DNA of 64,000 nt from an uncultured Flavobacteriales bacterium (GTDB lineage Bacteria > Bacteroidota > Bacteroidia > Flavobacteriales > UBA1820), in assembly GCA_902478645.1 (NCBI GenBank), contig CABSLV010000007.1:5504-69503 (forward strand). The letters run 5' to 3'. The notes beneath the pieces are model-generated. The model was given only the letters and a program-made list of their open reading frames with translations. It was not told the DNA's origin and ran no database searches. The stretch's first letter is position 1. Each line of letters starts with the position of its first letter. The position numbers and the translations under genes were made by a program. This document shows positions 12,553 to 22,228 of this stretch, in pieces.

Positions 12553-12605
12553 ATTCAAAAACGTGCGGGCAAGCGTTCGGCCGGAGGCCGGACGCTTGCC
12601 CGCAC
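12553..12605 (-). terminator. Intrinsic terminator of asnB (end of the gltB-gltD-asnB operon)
   Basis: GTGCGGGCAAGCGT t CGGCC gga GGCCG g ACGCTTGCCCGCAC (14+5 bp stem), followed on the minus strand by GTTTTTGAA; lies 29 nt after the asnB stop. Confidence 0.8.
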
Positions 12606-12633: not shown

Positions 12634-14301
12634 TCAATACGCGTTGTCGTGAACCCCCTTCACGGCACGGCCGCTCGGGTCGTTCAGGTTGCGGAACGAT
12701 TCGTCCCAAGCCAAGGCTTCCGCCGTGGAACAAGCCACCGAAGGCACCGAAGGCACGGTCAATGCCGCACTGCCGCTGGGGAAATGCTCCTCGAAAATGC
12801 TGCGGTAGAAGTACTCCTCCTTGTTGCGGGGCGGATTGACCGGAAAACGCCGGGCTGCCGAAGCCATCTGCTGGTCGGAGACCTGCGACGTAGCGATCGC
12901 CTTGAGCGAATCGATCCAGTTGTATCCCACGCCGTCGGAGAACTGCTCCTTCTGCCGCCATACCACCTCGCGGGGCAGCATATCCTCGAAAGCCTCGCGG
13001 AGGATCTTCTTTTCGATCGTCTTTCCGGGAGCCATCTTCGCCGCAGGGTTCAACCGCATGGCCACGTCCAGGAATTCCTTGTCCAGGAAAGGCACGCGCC
13101 CCTCCACGCCCCACGCCGCCAGGCTCTTGTTGGCCCGCAGACAGTCGTAGAGGTACAGCTTGCCGATCTTGCGCACCGTCTCCTCGTGGAAAGCCCGGGC
13201 GTCGGGCGCCTTGTGGAAATACAGATAACCGCCGAACACCTCATCCGCACCCTCGCCGCTGAGCACCATCTTGATCCCCATGCTCTTGATCACGCGGGCC
13301 AGGAGGTACATCGGGGTCGAAGCGCGCACGGTGGTTACGTCGTACGTCTCGATGAAGTAGATCACATCGCGGATCGCATCGAGCCCCTCCTGCACCGTGT
13401 AGTGGATCTCATGATGCACCGTTCCGATGTGTTCGGCCACCTTTCTGGCTGCGGCCAGATCCGGAGCCCCTTTCAGCCCCACGGCAAACGAGTGGAGCTG
13501 CGGCCACCACGCCTCGGTGCGGCCTTCGTTTTCGATACGCTTGGAGGCGTATTTCTTGGCTACCGCCGAAATGATGGACGAGTCCAGTCCCCCCGAAAGC
13601 AGCACTCCGTACGGCACGTCGCTCATCAGTTGCCGGCGGACCGCCTCTTCGAGTGCGTGGCGAAGGCTTGCCACATCGGCCGGGTTGTCCTTCACGTTGT
13701 CGTACTCCATCCAATCGCGGCGATACCAGCGGGTCATTTTCCCTTCCCGGCTCCAATAGTAATGTCCCGGGAGGAAGACTTCGTACTCGTCGGCAAAACC
13801 TTCCAGACCCTTGAGTTCCGAGCAGACCATCACATGCCCTTCGCGGTCGCGGCCGATGTACAGGGGGATCACCCCGATGGGGTCGCGGGCAATGAGGTAT
13901 TCGTCCTTTTCCTTGTCGTAAAGGGCAAAAGCATAGATCCCGTTGAGGTCTTCCAGGAAGTTGATGCCCTTTTCCCGGTAGAGCGCCAGGATCACCTCGC
14001 AGTCCGAGCCGGTCTGGAACTCGTATTTTCCCTTCAACTGCTCGCGCAATTCGCGGTGGTTGTAGATCTCTCCGTTCACGCACAGCACCTGTGCCCCGTC
14101 GGGGCTGATCAGGGGCTGTCCGCCGGAAGCCGGGTCCACGATCGAAAGGCGCTCGTGAGCCAATACGGCCGAACCGCCGCAGTAGATACCGCTCCAATCC
14201 GGTCCGCGATGGCGGATGGTTTTACTCATCTGCAGGGCCTTGCTGCGCATGGATTCCGCTTGCCCTGTCTGAATATTGAAAATGGCTGTAATTCCGCACA
14301 T
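12634..14301 (-). CDS. asnB: Asparagine synthase (glutamine-hydrolysing)
   Basis: 555 aa; N-terminal MCGI nucleophile; PP-loop LLSGGLDSS. Confidence 0.95.
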   Translation of the reverse strand: MCGITAIFNIQTGQAESMRSKALQMSKTIRHRGPDWSGIYCGGSAVLAHERLSIVDPASGGQPLISPDGAQVLCVNGEIYNHRELREQLKGKYEFQTGSDCEVILALYREKGINFLEDLNGIYAFALYDKEKDEYLIARDPIGVIPLYIGRDREGHVMVCSELKGLEGFADEYEVFLPGHYYWSREGKMTRWYRRDWMEYDNVKDNPADVASLRHALEEAVRRQLMSDVPYGVLLSGGLDSSIISAVAKKYASKRIENEGRTEAWWPQLHSFAVGLKGAPDLAAARKVAEHIGTVHHEIHYTVQEGLDAIRDVIYFIETYDVTTVRASTPMYLLARVIKSMGIKMVLSGEGADEVFGGYLYFHKAPDARAFHEETVRKIGKLYLYDCLRANKSLAAWGVEGRVPFLDKEFLDVAMRLNPAAKMAPGKTIEKKILREAFEDMLPREVVWRQKEQFSDGVGYNWIDSLKAIATSQVSDQQMASAARRFPVNPPRNKEEYFYRSIFEEHFPSGSAALTVPSVPSVACSTAEALAWDESFRNLNDPSGRAVKGVHDNAY

Positions 14302-14334
14302 GGTGTTTGAAAGAGTGTTTTGCGTTGCGTATTC

Positions 14335-15768
14335 TTATCGTTCGTGTTGTTTTTTCAGATAACGGTCGATCTCCCGGGCCGCTTTTTGGCCCGAAGCCAT
14401 CGCCCGCACCACCAGCGAAGCGCCGCTGACGGCATCGCCCGCCGCGAACACCTTGTCCGTACCGGTGAAAAGCGAGGCATCCACCGCAATGTTGCCCCGG
14501 GCGTCCGTAGCCAGGGAGAGCTGTGAAACCGGACCGTCCTGACGGGGCGAAACGAAGCCCATGGCCAAAAAGACCAGATCGGCAGGGATCACTTCCGTCT
14601 TTCCCGTTTTTTTCATCTGCGGCCGTCCGCCCTGCGCAGGGGTTTCCCAGACGACCTGTTCGACCTCCACTCCGACGAGTTTTCCTTCTTGCCCGACAAA
14701 ACGGTTGGTAGCCAAACTCCAACGGCGGGTACATCCCTCCTCGTGGCTGCTGGAGGTCTTGAGTACCTGCGGATACATGGGCCAGGGGGTTTGCGGATTG
14801 TAGCCCTGCGGGGGAGCCGGCATGATCTCGATCTGGGTAATGCTCTTGGCACCATGGCGTACAGCCGTCCCCACGCAATCCGAACCGGTATCCCCACCGC
14901 CGATCACCACCACGTGCTTGCCCCGGGCGTCGATCCGTTTCTCGGATGGCAGGTCGATGCCTTGCAGTACCCGGTTCTGCATGCCGAGCAATTCCAAGGC
15001 GAAATGCACACCCGGAAGTTCCCGTCCCGGCACCGGCAGGTCACGCGGCACTTCGGCACCGATGGCCAGGCATACCGCATCGTATTCGTCGATGAGCGCC
15101 TCCATCGGGATATCTTTTCCCACGGCCGCCCCGGTCTTGAACACGATGCCTTCCTGCTCCATCAGGCGGATGCGGCGGTCGATGATCTTCTTGCTCAACT
15201 TGAAGTTCGGTATCCCGAAGCGCAGCAGTCCTCCGGGCAGTTCGTCCTTTTCATACACCGTAACGGTGTATCCCTTGCGGTTCAAGCGGTTGGCAGCCGC
15301 CAGTCCGGCCGGTCCGCTGCCCACCACCGCTACCTTCAGGCCGTTGCGCACCGGCTCGACCGGCTTGACATAGCCCTCGCGGAAAGCTGCCTCGGCAATG
15401 GCCGCTTCGTTTTCGCGGATGGTAACCGGTTCGTCGGCCGAGAGTTTGAGCACGCAGCTCTTCTCGCACAGCGCCGGACAGATGCGTCCGGTGAACTCCG
15501 GAAAATCGCAGGTCTGTTCCAGGATGCGGTAAGCCTCCTCGATACGCCCCCGGTAGAGCAAATCCTGCCATTCGGGCTGACGGTTGCCCACCGGGCAGGC
15601 CCAGTGGCAAAAAGGAACTCCACAGTCCATGCAGCGCGAAGCTTGCGTACGGCGGTCGGAGGTATTGAGGGTCTGTTCGACTTCGCTGTAATCGTGTATG
15701 CGGTCGTGTACCGGACGGTAACCTGCTTCGAGACGGTGCACGGTCAGAAATGCTTTCGGATCTCCCAT
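14335..15768 (-). CDS. gltD: Glutamate synthase small subunit
   Basis: 477 aa; Fe-S Cys cluster region (CMDCGVPFCHWACP) and FAD/NAD Rossmann motif VAVVGSGPAGLAAA. Confidence 0.95.
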   Translation of the reverse strand: MGDPKAFLTVHRLEAGYRPVHDRIHDYSEVEQTLNTSDRRTQASRCMDCGVPFCHWACPVGNRQPEWQDLLYRGRIEEAYRILEQTCDFPEFTGRICPALCEKSCVLKLSADEPVTIRENEAAIAEAAFREGYVKPVEPVRNGLKVAVVGSGPAGLAAANRLNRKGYTVTVYEKDELPGGLLRFGIPNFKLSKKIIDRRIRLMEQEGIVFKTGAAVGKDIPMEALIDEYDAVCLAIGAEVPRDLPVPGRELPGVHFALELLGMQNRVLQGIDLPSEKRIDARGKHVVVIGGGDTGSDCVGTAVRHGAKSITQIEIMPAPPQGYNPQTPWPMYPQVLKTSSSHEEGCTRRWSLATNRFVGQEGKLVGVEVEQVVWETPAQGGRPQMKKTGKTEVIPADLVFLAMGFVSPRQDGPVSQLSLATDARGNIAVDASLFTGTDKVFAAGDAVSGASLVVRAMASGQKAAREIDRYLKKQHER

Positions 15769-15819
15769 ATTTTCGGATGATGTTGTCTAGATTCGTTTTT
15801 CCCTTTTAATTTGTCTGGA

Positions 15820-20355
<4,536 letters not shown>

Positions 20356-20390
20356 ACACTCTGAGATTGATGTTTTTCCCCTCGGGAGGC

Positions 20391-20441
20391 AAAACCCCGA
20401 AAAGAGAAAATGCCTGCCGCAAGTGCGGCAGGCATTTTCTC
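20391..20441 (-). terminator. Strong terminator-like hairpin inside the gltB leader (candidate attenuator)
   Basis: Minus-strand RNA GAGAAAAUGCCUGCCGC acuu GCGGCAGGCAUUUUCUC (perfect 17-bp stem) followed by UUUUCGGGGUUUU; lies 49-73 nt upstream of the gltB start. Confidence 0.6.
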
Positions 20442-20462
20442 CAAATGAACACGAACCACAAC

Positions 20463-20537
20463 TTACGGCCGGGCGTCCGGGACGGACTTCCTGGTGGAAT
20501 TATTGTTGTTCATAATATTCATTGTGGAGGTTTTCAT
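20463..20537 (-). CDS. Candidate leader peptide, 24 aa, Asn-rich (MKTSTMNIMNNNNSTRKSVPDARP)
   Basis: Hand translation of the minus strand: ATG at 20537, TAA at 20465..20463, four consecutive Asn codons AAC AAC AAT AAT. Sits between a -7 box and the terminator hairpin. Confidence 0.4.
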   Translation of the reverse strand: MKTSTMNIMNNNNSTRKSVPDARP

Positions 20538-20560
20538 TTCCTTCGTTGTTGAACCGGCAA

Positions 20561-20568
20561 CAAATGTA
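20561..20568 (-). promoter_or_regulatory. Bacteroidota-type -7 promoter box TACATTTG (TAnnTTTG)
   Basis: The + strand reads CAAATGTA; it lies 24 nt upstream of the leader-ORF ATG. Confidence 0.45.
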
Positions 20569-20800
20569 CGGAAATATTGGAATGCGAGGAAAATTTTTTA
20601 CAAAAAATCGACAACGAATCATTGTTTTGTGTTTTTTAACATAAAAAATTCATCCCTATCCGGCTGATTCCGCCCTATTTTCCCCGCCCGGGAGTATGTT
20701 TTCCGGGAAAAAATCCTCAATTTTGCGGAAGAAAAACAGCGCACACTGCGCGTTTTATACTTACATTGCCAACAAAACAAAGAGCAGAACGAAAAAAACC

Positions 20801-22228
20801 ATGAAACGCACCGAGGTAAAGGACATCCTCGCGGGAGGATACGTAGGAAAGCAGGTAAAGGTAATGGGATGGGCACGGACCTTCCGCAACGACCGGTTTA
20901 TTGCCCTCAATGACGGATCGAACGTTCAAAACCTGCAATGCGTCGTGCCCGAAGGCCTGCTGACCCCTCAGCAGAAGATCTATGCCGGCACGTGCCTGGC
21001 CGTCGAAGGAACGGTAGTCGAGAGCCAGGGAAAAGGCCAGGCGTACGAGGTGCAAGCCACCGGCGTCGAGATCCTCGGCCAGGCCGATCCTGCCGAATAT
21101 CCCCTGCAACCCAAAGCCCATTCGATGGAATTCCTCCGCGAAATCGCCCACCTGCGTGTACGCACCAACCTCTTCGGAGCGGTGATGCGCGTGCGCTCCG
21201 TTACGGCGCAGGCCGTCCACCGGTATTTCGCCTCGAAGGGTTTCTTTTACTTCAATGCCCCCATCATCACCGGCTCGGACTGCGAAGGTGCCGGCGAGAT
21301 GTTCGGCGTATCGGTACTCTCCCACGACAACCCTCCGCGCCGCGAGGACGGCAAGACGGATTTCTCGAAAGACTTCTTCGGGCGGCAGACCAACCTGACG
21401 GTGTCCGGTCAGCTCGAAGCCGAAACCTATGCCCTGGCACTGGGCAAGGTGTACACCTTCGGGCCGACGTTCCGCGCCGAAAACTCCAACACTTCGCGCC
21501 ACCTGGCCGAGTTCTGGATGATCGAACCCGAAGTGGCGTTCCTTGAACTGGAAGAAAACATGGACCTGGCCGAAGACTTCATCAAGAGCGTGATCCGCGA
21601 CGTGATGGAACACTGCAAGGACGACCTGGCCTTCCTCGACGAGCGTTTCCTGAAGACCGAAAGCCAGAAACCCTCGTCCGAACGCTCGGAGATGGGGCTG
21701 CTCGAAAAATTGAACTTCGTACTGCAACACGATTTCCAGCGGGTAAGCTACACCGAGGCCATCGACATCCTGGCTTCGAGCAAACAAGCCAAAAAGAACA
21801 AATTCAAATTCCCCATCACCGGTTGGGGCATGGACCTGCAGAGCGAGCACGAACGCTACCTGGTGGAAAAACACTTCGGTCGTCCGGTCATCCTGTACGA
21901 CTACCCGGCCGAGATCAAGGCTTTCTACATGCGGATGAACCCCGACGGGAAAACCGTCCGCGCCATGGACGTGCTGTTCCCCGGAATCGGCGAGATCGTC
22001 GGCGGAAGCCAGCGTGAGGAGCGTCTGGATGTGCTCACCCAGCGCATGGAAGCCCTCGGCATGAACCAGAAGGAGCTCTGGTGGTACCTCGACACCCGCC
22101 GCTTCGGCACCGCTCCCCACTCGGGATTCGGACTGGGCTTCGAACGCCTGGTACAGTTCGTTACCGGCATGAGCAACATCCGGGATGTCATCCCGTTCCC
22201 GCGCTATCCCCAGAACGCCGAATTCTGA
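20801..22228 (+). CDS. asnS: Asparaginyl-tRNA synthetase
   Basis: ORF 20696..22228 trimmed to [10 protein letters not shown]; class II motif [19 protein letters not shown] and C-terminal GFGLGFERL. Confidence 0.95.

Follow-up and report, generated by a model that had tools for sequence, protein, structure and literature searches.

A candidate asparagine-keyed leader-peptide attenuator upstream of gltB-gltD-asnB in an uncultured Bacteroidota lineage

Attenuation of transcription by a translated leader peptide is a textbook mechanism, for which the known examples respond to Trp, His, Phe, Leu, Thr and Ile/Val. The asparagine (Asn) T-boxes of Firmicutes, which lie upstream of asnS or asnA, bind uncharged tRNA directly, and translation is not needed; in Bacteroidota, the Bacteroid-trp motif has been taken to comprise a Trp leader peptide and a terminator. 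This motif (RF01692) is a candidate cis-regulatory leader located before an operon for amino-acid biosynthesis, within the phylum of the DNA considered here (PMC2864571), and leader-peptide attenuators are also described elsewhere outside Proteobacteria, i.e. the Leu-rich leader of ilv-leu in Staphylococcus aureus (PMC5794164), that of ilvBNC in Corynebacterium glutamicum (PMC11857589) and the His leader of hisS/hisZ in Bacillus (PMC2965389). Here we analyse a stretch of 64,000 nt from an uncultured Flavobacteriales bacterium (assembly GCA_902478645.1, contig CABSLV010000007.1, positions 5,504 to 69,503; "the window" denotes this whole stretch), the minus strand of which carries, between the divergent genes asnS and gltB, a leader that is probably an attenuator keyed to Asn codons. 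No described case of an Asn leader peptide, or of a gltB or asnB attenuator, was found in the searched literature, and no Asn example was found in Rfam, in line with the original prediction, made by a model from the letters of the window and its open reading frames (ORFs), which had been aware of no Asn leader for gltBD-asnB.

Read on the minus strand, the leader opens with a predicted promoter, the -7 box TACATTTG (20561..20568), read from the sequence; its form, TAnnTTTG, is an established promoter element in Bacteroidota. The leader ORF, for which we propose the name asnL, occupies 20463..20537 on the same strand: 24 codons specifying MKTSTMNIMNNNNSTRKSVPDARP run from the ATG at 20537 to a TAA stop at 20465-20463. 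Its proposed regulatory codons (20499..20519, minus strand) are Asn codon 7 (AAT, 20519-20517) and codons 10-13 (AAC AAC AAT AAT, 20510-20499). Starting 21 nt after the ORF stop there is a terminator hairpin (20404..20441, minus strand; pairing 3:4) with a perfect 17-bp stem, a 4-nt ACUU loop and a predicted energy of ~-34 kcal/mol, directly after the stem of which comes the U-rich tail UUUUCGGGGUUUU (TTTTCGGGGTTTT; 20391..20403, minus strand); the gltB ATG lies 72 nt past the stem. The box, the Asn-rich 24-codon ORF, the 17-bp hairpin with its tail and the gltB start had all been described in the original prediction, and each is confirmed at the coordinates it gave, whereas the gltB/asnS intergenic region that it put at 445 bp is actually 469 bp, with the asnS ATG at 20801. 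These elements and their order, together with their conservation, a frame-specific enrichment in Asn, three pairings that exclude one another and the absence of a promoter box downstream of the hairpin, are directly seen. We consider it probable that they constitute a ribosome-mediated leader-peptide transcription attenuator which is keyed to Asn codons and charged tRNA-Asn, and which sets read-through into gltB-gltD-asnB.

Leaders homologous to that of the window were found between asnS and gltB in nine further variants, making ten in all from six lineages, with asparaginyl-tRNA synthetase (AsnRS) identities of 76-99%. By AsnRS identity the lineages are window/L149/L143; L191/L204/L195; L192; L001; L196; and L197. 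The AsnRS protein search gave graded relatives at 99, 95, 89, 86, 85, 81 and 76% identity, and the divergent asnS/gltB arrangement with a homologous leader is present in L191, L204, L192/L193/L194/L198, L195, L196 and L197; left out of this asnS-anchored set were L200 and L203, which have different synteny, L202, with too little upstream sequence, and L201, a partial copy from the window clade. Over the six lineages the leader elements are conserved while the flanking intergenic sequence diverges and takes insertions. TAnnTTTG is kept in 10/10 variants, with the leader start codon 21-24 nt after the box, and the mini-ORF, its frame, the Asn enrichment and the hairpin, whose conservation in related leaders the original prediction had put forward as a check, are likewise retained in all ten.

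The leader ORF is 20-26 codons long across the ten variants. Frame 0 is stop-free in every one of them, whilst frames 1 and 2 each contain at least one stop in 10/10; the start codon is ATG in nine variants and GTG in L197, the stop codons swap between TAA, TGA and TAG at the same site, and a 9-nt indel that distinguishes L001 from the window keeps the frame. Apart from Asn the peptide sequence is poorly conserved (MKTSTMNIMNNNNSTRKSVPDARP, MQTINMNINNRSRKSMSGYR, MQTLVMNTIDNNPRRMSVPHARR, MKTSNMNMNIKRSGRSVTDLRP, MKTPVMNPNNNNINPSRMSVPDAR, MIVSINMNNNWRPSLRNTQP). Asn is the commonest residue in every variant, with 3-6 per leader, and although the number of Asn codons shifts fast (three in L191 and six in L195, at 95% AsnRS identity), Asn is never lost. 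Counted over seven variants, one per clearly distinct leader, 29 of 159 leader codons (18%) specify Asn, which in five neighbouring genes accounts for 3.2% (binomial P=5e-14, uncorrected for lineage relatedness). AAY triplets (Y, pyrimidine) are distributed over the three frames as 40:1:13 (Fisher P=2e-8). For the window by itself, five Asn in 24 codons has P=0.013 by local base composition and 9e-4 by the Asn frequency of neighbouring genes, and the 64 kb contain a single (AAY)4, where 0.05 would be expected. The Asn run, which is NNNN in the window and L195, NNN in L149, L143 and L196, and NN in L001, L191, L204 and L197, lies 10-13 codons ahead of the stop in most variants. In the consensus fold codons 10-13 fall within an internal loop that is unpaired, and their conservation is therefore not explained by pairing. 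The ORF thus behaves as a translated leader peptide, and we infer that it is one.

A separate observation concerns codon choice: the leader Asn codons are 76% AAU (22/29), whereas in the five neighbouring genes 69% are AAC. The AAU bias may reflect an AT-rich or structural constraint, or else selection for the wobble-decoded codon of a queuosine-carrying tRNA-Asn; it is a matter of speculation whether decoding by queuosine-modified tRNA-Asn tunes the switch.

The terminator hairpin is kept in 10/10 variants at -12 to -34 kcal/mol (92.9% of alignment cells paired), with energies of -25 to -34 kcal/mol in most lineages, and a U-rich tail follows it in every lineage, reaching U9 in L197. Within the stem, the 5' arm core CUGCCGC is invariant and the 3' arm tolerates mismatches, a pattern which suggests that the 5' arm is doubly constrained. 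The leader as a whole folds with z=-4.5 relative to shuffles. No copies of the hairpin occur elsewhere in the 64-kb window, and this uniqueness rules out a repeat or an element resembling a repetitive extragenic palindrome (REP). Between the terminator and the gltB ATG, a search by motif only of nine sequences (37-270 nt) returned no TAnnTTTG box, nor even nAnnTTTG, and gltB transcription must therefore cross the hairpin. A sigma-70-type promoter scan proved uninformative for Bacteroidota and was set aside; it also overlooked the 17-bp hairpin with its tail UUUUCGGGG. In the window clade there is, in addition, a second hairpin, UUUUCGGGG-UUUUGCC-UCCCGAGGGGAAAAA (window 20373-20403, minus strand), which overlaps the U tract of the terminator and is absent in the other lineages; it might modulate termination, or be just a local insertion.

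Competition with the terminator centres on the G/U-rich segment 2 (AAGUUGUGGUUCGUGUUCAUUUG, 20442..20464, minus strand), which begins inside the stop codon and can take as partner either segment 1 or the terminator 5' arm. Segment 1 (CCACAAUGAAUAU, codons 4-8; 20515..20527, minus strand) pairs with segment 2 when free of ribosomes. This 1:2 helix joins AUGAAUAU (codons 6-8, Met-Asn-Ile) to GUGUUCAU by 8 bp, with an adjacent 3 bp that show compensatory changes (RNAalifold, nine sequences), and is found in single-sequence minimum free energy (MFE) folds as well. Between the Asn codons and the stop, a central hairpin within the ORF, P2 (GG..GUCCG-UCC-CGGAC..CC; 20472..20491, minus strand), is mostly conserved, with some one-sided or two-sided changes, and appears to act as a spacer or pause hairpin. 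The alternative partner of segment 2 had escaped the original prediction, which reported no convincing antiterminator: positions 20464-20448 (AAGU.GUGGU..GUGUU) pair with 20436-20421 (AAUGC..GCCGC-ACUU), i.e. with the terminator 5' arm and loop, to give an antiterminator (2:3; 20421..20464, minus strand) of 14 bp and ~-10 kcal/mol; for nine of the ten variants such a helix is predicted, with energies of -9.6 to -16.1 kcal/mol. The folding check that it had proposed, for structures competing with the terminator, accordingly finds the mutually exclusive helices 1:2, 2:3 and 3:4.

Comparison among lineages bears on the antiterminator in several ways. In alignment A4, 91.4% of antiterminator cells are paired, against 31-68% with the partner slid by 1-3 columns, and three pairs change on both sides. 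AAGU:ACUU of the window becomes AAGC:GCUU in the L191/L204/L195 clade (U-A to C-G), L191 and L204 carry a matched 1-nt insertion in both strands, and L001 shows a U-A to A-U swap that touches the first loop nucleotide. L196 has a wholly different segment 2, GCAGACAU followed by GAGC, which pairs with its own arm, AUGUCUGC followed by GCUC, over 12 bp at -16 kcal/mol (P=0.009 versus shuffles). In nine of the ten variants the stop codon is separated by 0-5 nt from the base at which segment 2 begins to pair. The predicted segment order, spacing and stop placement match the geometry that a trp/his-type attenuator needs, and both sequence-based tests of the Asn-sensing attenuator originally proposed, conservation and competing structure, lend it support.

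We infer from this arrangement a switch of the following kind. Transcription would begin a few nt after TACATTTG, and its first ~150 nt would encode the 24-codon peptide with its five Asn codons. With Asn plentiful, the ribosome would reach the stop and mask the abutting segment 2, 3:4 would pair, and RNA polymerase would halt at the U tail; with no translation, the Met-Asn codons would sequester segment 2 (1:2), and once more the terminator would form. Were Asn-tRNA scarce, the ribosome would stall at codon 7 or codons 10-13, covering segment 1 and leaving segment 2, ~30-40 nt downstream, free. Free segment 2 could then pair with the upper part of the terminator 5' arm and with the loop (2:3), i.e. 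the hairpin's nucleation site, and polymerase would read through into gltB. In masking simulations the 1:2 helix forms without a ribosome and the terminator 5' arm stays free, a ribosome at the stop covers segment 2, and a ribosome on the Asn run makes 2:3 the MFE fold of the nascent transcript in 5/7 lineages; for the window this holds for stalls at codons 7, 10 and 11. The physiological response would be one in which tRNA-Asn charging, via the leader peptide, sets the expression of glutamate synthase (GOGAT), central to nitrogen assimilation by GS-GOGAT, and of asparagine synthetase, with Asn, the product of the glutamine-dependent AsnB, as a sentinel of nitrogen sufficiency. This wider proposal, under which the element would be the first Asn-specific leader peptide and the first on a central nitrogen-assimilation operon, we put forward only tentatively.

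The distribution of the leader is narrow. GTDB species genomes, scanned with the GltB N-terminus, gave at least 80 loci, and among the matches listed, to which the results below on other gltB loci and on the nearest GltB relatives also refer, one has the leader, namely L001, a metagenome-assembled genome labelled Flavobacteriales. The other 78 usable Bacteroidales gltB loci lack a strong terminator and an Asn-rich ORF, and are not matched by the covariance model described below; upstream of gltB in the Parabacteroides, Tannerella, Bacteroides, Phocaeicola and Prevotellaceae loci, likewise, there is no strong terminator or Asn-rich ORF. A GltB N-terminal protein search found no relatives between 73% and 100% identity. 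Scanning metagenomes with a hairpin-anchored DNA pattern returned 108 matches, of which 105 were by chance and the real ones were L143 and L149, which are 94-95% identical copies, and L117 (the same as L001). A covariance model built from nine leaders (R1) matches the window at 20397-20552 (minus strand, 174 bits), L001, L201 and, weakly, L197 (15 bits), with no further site in the window and none in the 78 other gltB loci; R1 thus locates no site beyond those expected, and the element is confined to a single lineage of uncultured Bacteroidota. This leader-bearing lineage is partly gut-associated, and its Flavobacteriales label comes from the submitters. The nearest GltB relatives are Parabacteroides/Tannerellaceae (~75%) and the nearest named AsnRS relatives are Flavobacteriales (~70%), and the two genes therefore hint at different affiliations.

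Several observations weigh against an Asn-keyed attenuator. L192 has no consecutive Asn codons (N-M-N-M-N), and codon 7 (AAU) belongs to helix 1:2, which means that its conservation could be structural. In the window, a stall at codons 12-13 gives no 2:3 pairing, the MFE fold retaining part of 1:2. The antiterminator of the window is weak (~-10 against -34 kcal/mol for the terminator; in trp, too, the antiterminator is the weaker structure), and its internal loops are possible toeholds for the 3' arm. Within the window clade it does not stand out in energy from shuffled upstream segments, 33-45% of which are as good, so that support for the antiterminator comes from conservation across the six related lineages; in column-shuffle controls, moreover, 10-44 of 500 reach the observed antiterminator values. 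The ORF of L197, the most distant of the lineages, has a GTG start and runs through segment 2, and in this variant, the one scoring 15 bits with the covariance model, 2:3 is predicted even when ribosome-free. The operon link is thin, in that asnB has been confirmed downstream of gltD only in the window clade (window, L149). Finally, the leader is, from the loci compared, lineage-specific and not a general trait of gltBD-asnB, which we count as a weak point.

Alternatively, the element might be a genuine attenuator with alternative structures, but one set by an RNA-binding protein, a small RNA (sRNA), a metabolite (e.g. a nitrogen signal) or the general translation rate, with an ORF that is incidental or that senses several amino acids. 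The antiterminator energy alone is unconvincing; the conserved nucleotide blocks in the ORF (AUGAAU, CCAGGAAGUCC and P2) act like constraints of RNA structure, the peptide substitutions between close relatives are all non-synonymous, and conserved blocks upstream of the promoter hint at additional regulators. However, the open frame, the stop-to-stop swaps, the in-frame indel and the 40:1:13 distribution of AAY are hard to explain without translation. The Asn run, variable in length, lies in an unpaired loop, and the position of the stop, next to segment 2 in 9/10 variants, is of consequence only where a ribosome reads it. No Rfam family, riboswitches and T-box included, reaches threshold at the leader. 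We regard a switch set by something other than Asn as unlikely.

A different view would treat the promoter, ORF and terminator as an independent small gene, producing a peptide of 20-26 aa or an sRNA of ~150 nt, and would have gltB transcribed by constitutive leakage or from an unrecognised promoter. The great strength of the hairpin as a terminator in most lineages (-25 to -34 kcal/mol) fits this view, as does the terminator-to-gltB distance of ~270 nt in L192/L193; released attenuator RNAs and leader peptides can act in trans in other bacteria (rnTrpL/peTrpL, PMC6614838, PMC7298713), and a conserved UGUGUGUG..UAUAAAA block by gltB lacks an explanation. Against it, the nine sequences have neither TAnnTTTG nor nAnnTTTG between terminator and gltB, and the lack of a bypass promoter counts against a small gene with its own terminator; a functional peptide would sit uneasily with a sequence that is unconserved apart from Asn, and nothing in such a gene explains why the complementarity of segment 2 to the terminator arm is conserved and covaries. 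We judge this improbable. That an AT-rich ORF and a hairpin have been paired by chance, with no regulatory role, seems barely credible: whilst 78 other Bacteroidales gltB loci do without the element, and the window-clade 2:3 energy is no better than that of shuffles, every element is conserved in six lineages as the flanking intergenic sequence diverges, (AAY)4 is unique in the window and the fold has z=-4.5. An attenuator responding to Asn through its leader peptide is therefore the reading that we favour.

Further conserved sequence lies on either side of the leader. Nearly all lineages that carry the leader share a block, (A)GUGUGUG-N2-4-UAUAAAA, 15-35 nt ahead of the start of gltB (window 20343-20360, minus strand), which is located just before gltB in the window, L001, L191, L204, L193, L195 and L197; it is not a TAnnTTTG box and may be a translation-initiation element or a second regulatory element. 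In L192 and L193 it stays by gltB despite a GC-rich palindromic insert of ~200 nt past the terminator. This additional DNA, ~200 nt of inverted repeats rich in GC (GGGCCGGGTGACCCCGGGCCCAGTGACCTGGGC...), separates the leader terminator from gltB in L193 (~256-520) and, with the same sequence, in L192, L194 and L198, i.e. in the 86% lineage; it resembles a repeat or a miniature element that has inserted. The half of the intergenic region nearer to asnS contains three blocks conserved in all lineages, GCAAAATTGAKGATTTTT, TTTTTTATGTTAAAA and GAAAATAG, at 20709-20726, 20634-20648 and ~20672-20679 (read on the minus strand). The first of them, on the plus strand ..CAATTTTGC, is likely the -7 box of asnS; the remaining two are possible operator sites, in which case control at the promoter would be added to attenuation.

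The presumed controlled unit (12634..20331, minus strand) comprises gltB (15820-20331, ATG at 20331), gltD (14335-15768) and, as its last gene, asnB (12634-14301), all on the minus strand and identified by Pfam. The gaps are short (51 nt between gltB and gltD, 33 nt between gltD and asnB), and 30 nt past the asnB stop a predicted operon terminator (12556-12605, minus strand), a long perfect hairpin GUGCGGGCAAGCG..CGCUUGCCCGCAC followed by GUUUUUG, closes the unit; because of these gaps and the hairpin with its U run, gltB-gltD-asnB looks like one transcription unit. The same gene order is found in L149. In Prevotella ruminicola, gltBD and asnB are co-induced 27-38-fold when ammonium is limiting (PMC5552732), which makes joint control of these genes physiologically plausible. 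The divergent neighbour of gltB, asnS, encodes a class-II tRNA synthetase of Asn/Asp/Lys type (Pfam). Its mechanically called ORF of 510 aa (ATG 20696, with 20696-20800 of the plus strand as the extra part) was rejected as too long, alignment with all relatives placing the start at ATG 20801, which gives a protein of 475 aa, matching every relative, and the intergenic region of 469 bp. Downstream of asnS, synteny is conserved between lineages: L191, L192, L195, L196 and L197 have a gene for an outer membrane protein (OMP) beta-barrel (PF13568), a small gene and, on the opposite strand, rpoN (sigma-54).

If the proposed attenuator is real, the mechanism gains a new amino acid, Asn, and a new type of target, namely an operon of central nitrogen assimilation whose last gene alone produces the sensed amino acid. 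It would also imply tight coupling of transcription and translation in a member of the Bacteroidota that initiates without the classical Shine-Dalgarno mechanism; for such coupling, little studied in this phylum, the candidate would provide indirect evidence. Such switches could, further, arise and persist in a narrow, partly gut-associated uncultured lineage whilst sister groups regulate the same operon differently. Model R1 and alignment A5 provide an annotation resource for a leader overlooked by gene callers and by Rfam. An Asn-leader attenuator is unsurprising in principle, undescribed and, as far as comparison of sequences can indicate, well supported.

With respect to curated families, the best Rfam score for the leader (window 20100-20900, E<=10) is Thr_leader (RF00506), at 32.9 bits on the minus strand and 27.4 on the plus strand against a gathering score of 55. 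Identity with Thr_leader was rejected, as the match is below threshold and the peptide is without a Thr/Ile run, and the match is hairpin-driven, since the opposite strand scores too. Over the same interval and at the same E value, Bacteroid-trp (RF01692), T-box (RF00230) and the other curated leaders and riboswitches gave no match, and in six related loci no Rfam family reached its gathering score. The Firmicutes Asn T-box would share with the present leader both signal (tRNA-Asn charging) and output (terminator versus antiterminator), but the element here has a conserved ORF in place of a specifier loop and T-box sequence. Bacteroid-trp differs in amino acid and operon, and has no covariance match here.

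The closest likeness is to the enterobacterial trpL, hisL, pheL, leuL, thrL and ilvL leaders, which display the same logic and the same order of promoter, codon-rich short ORF, 1:2/2:3/3:4 pairings, terminator and operon, as well as the same stop placement, by which a ribosome that terminates there covers segment 2. The present leader has no sequence homology with them, and departs from them in its Asn codons, in an operon that is mainly GOGAT with asnB last, in having ~10-13 codons and the extra hairpin P2 between the regulatory codons and the stop, and in a Bacteroidota host with TAnnTTTG promoters. The leaders of S. aureus, C. glutamicum and Bacillus serve other amino acids and operons in other phyla; they represent repeated origins in separate phyla without mutual sequence similarity, a pattern into which a lineage-restricted Asn leader fits.

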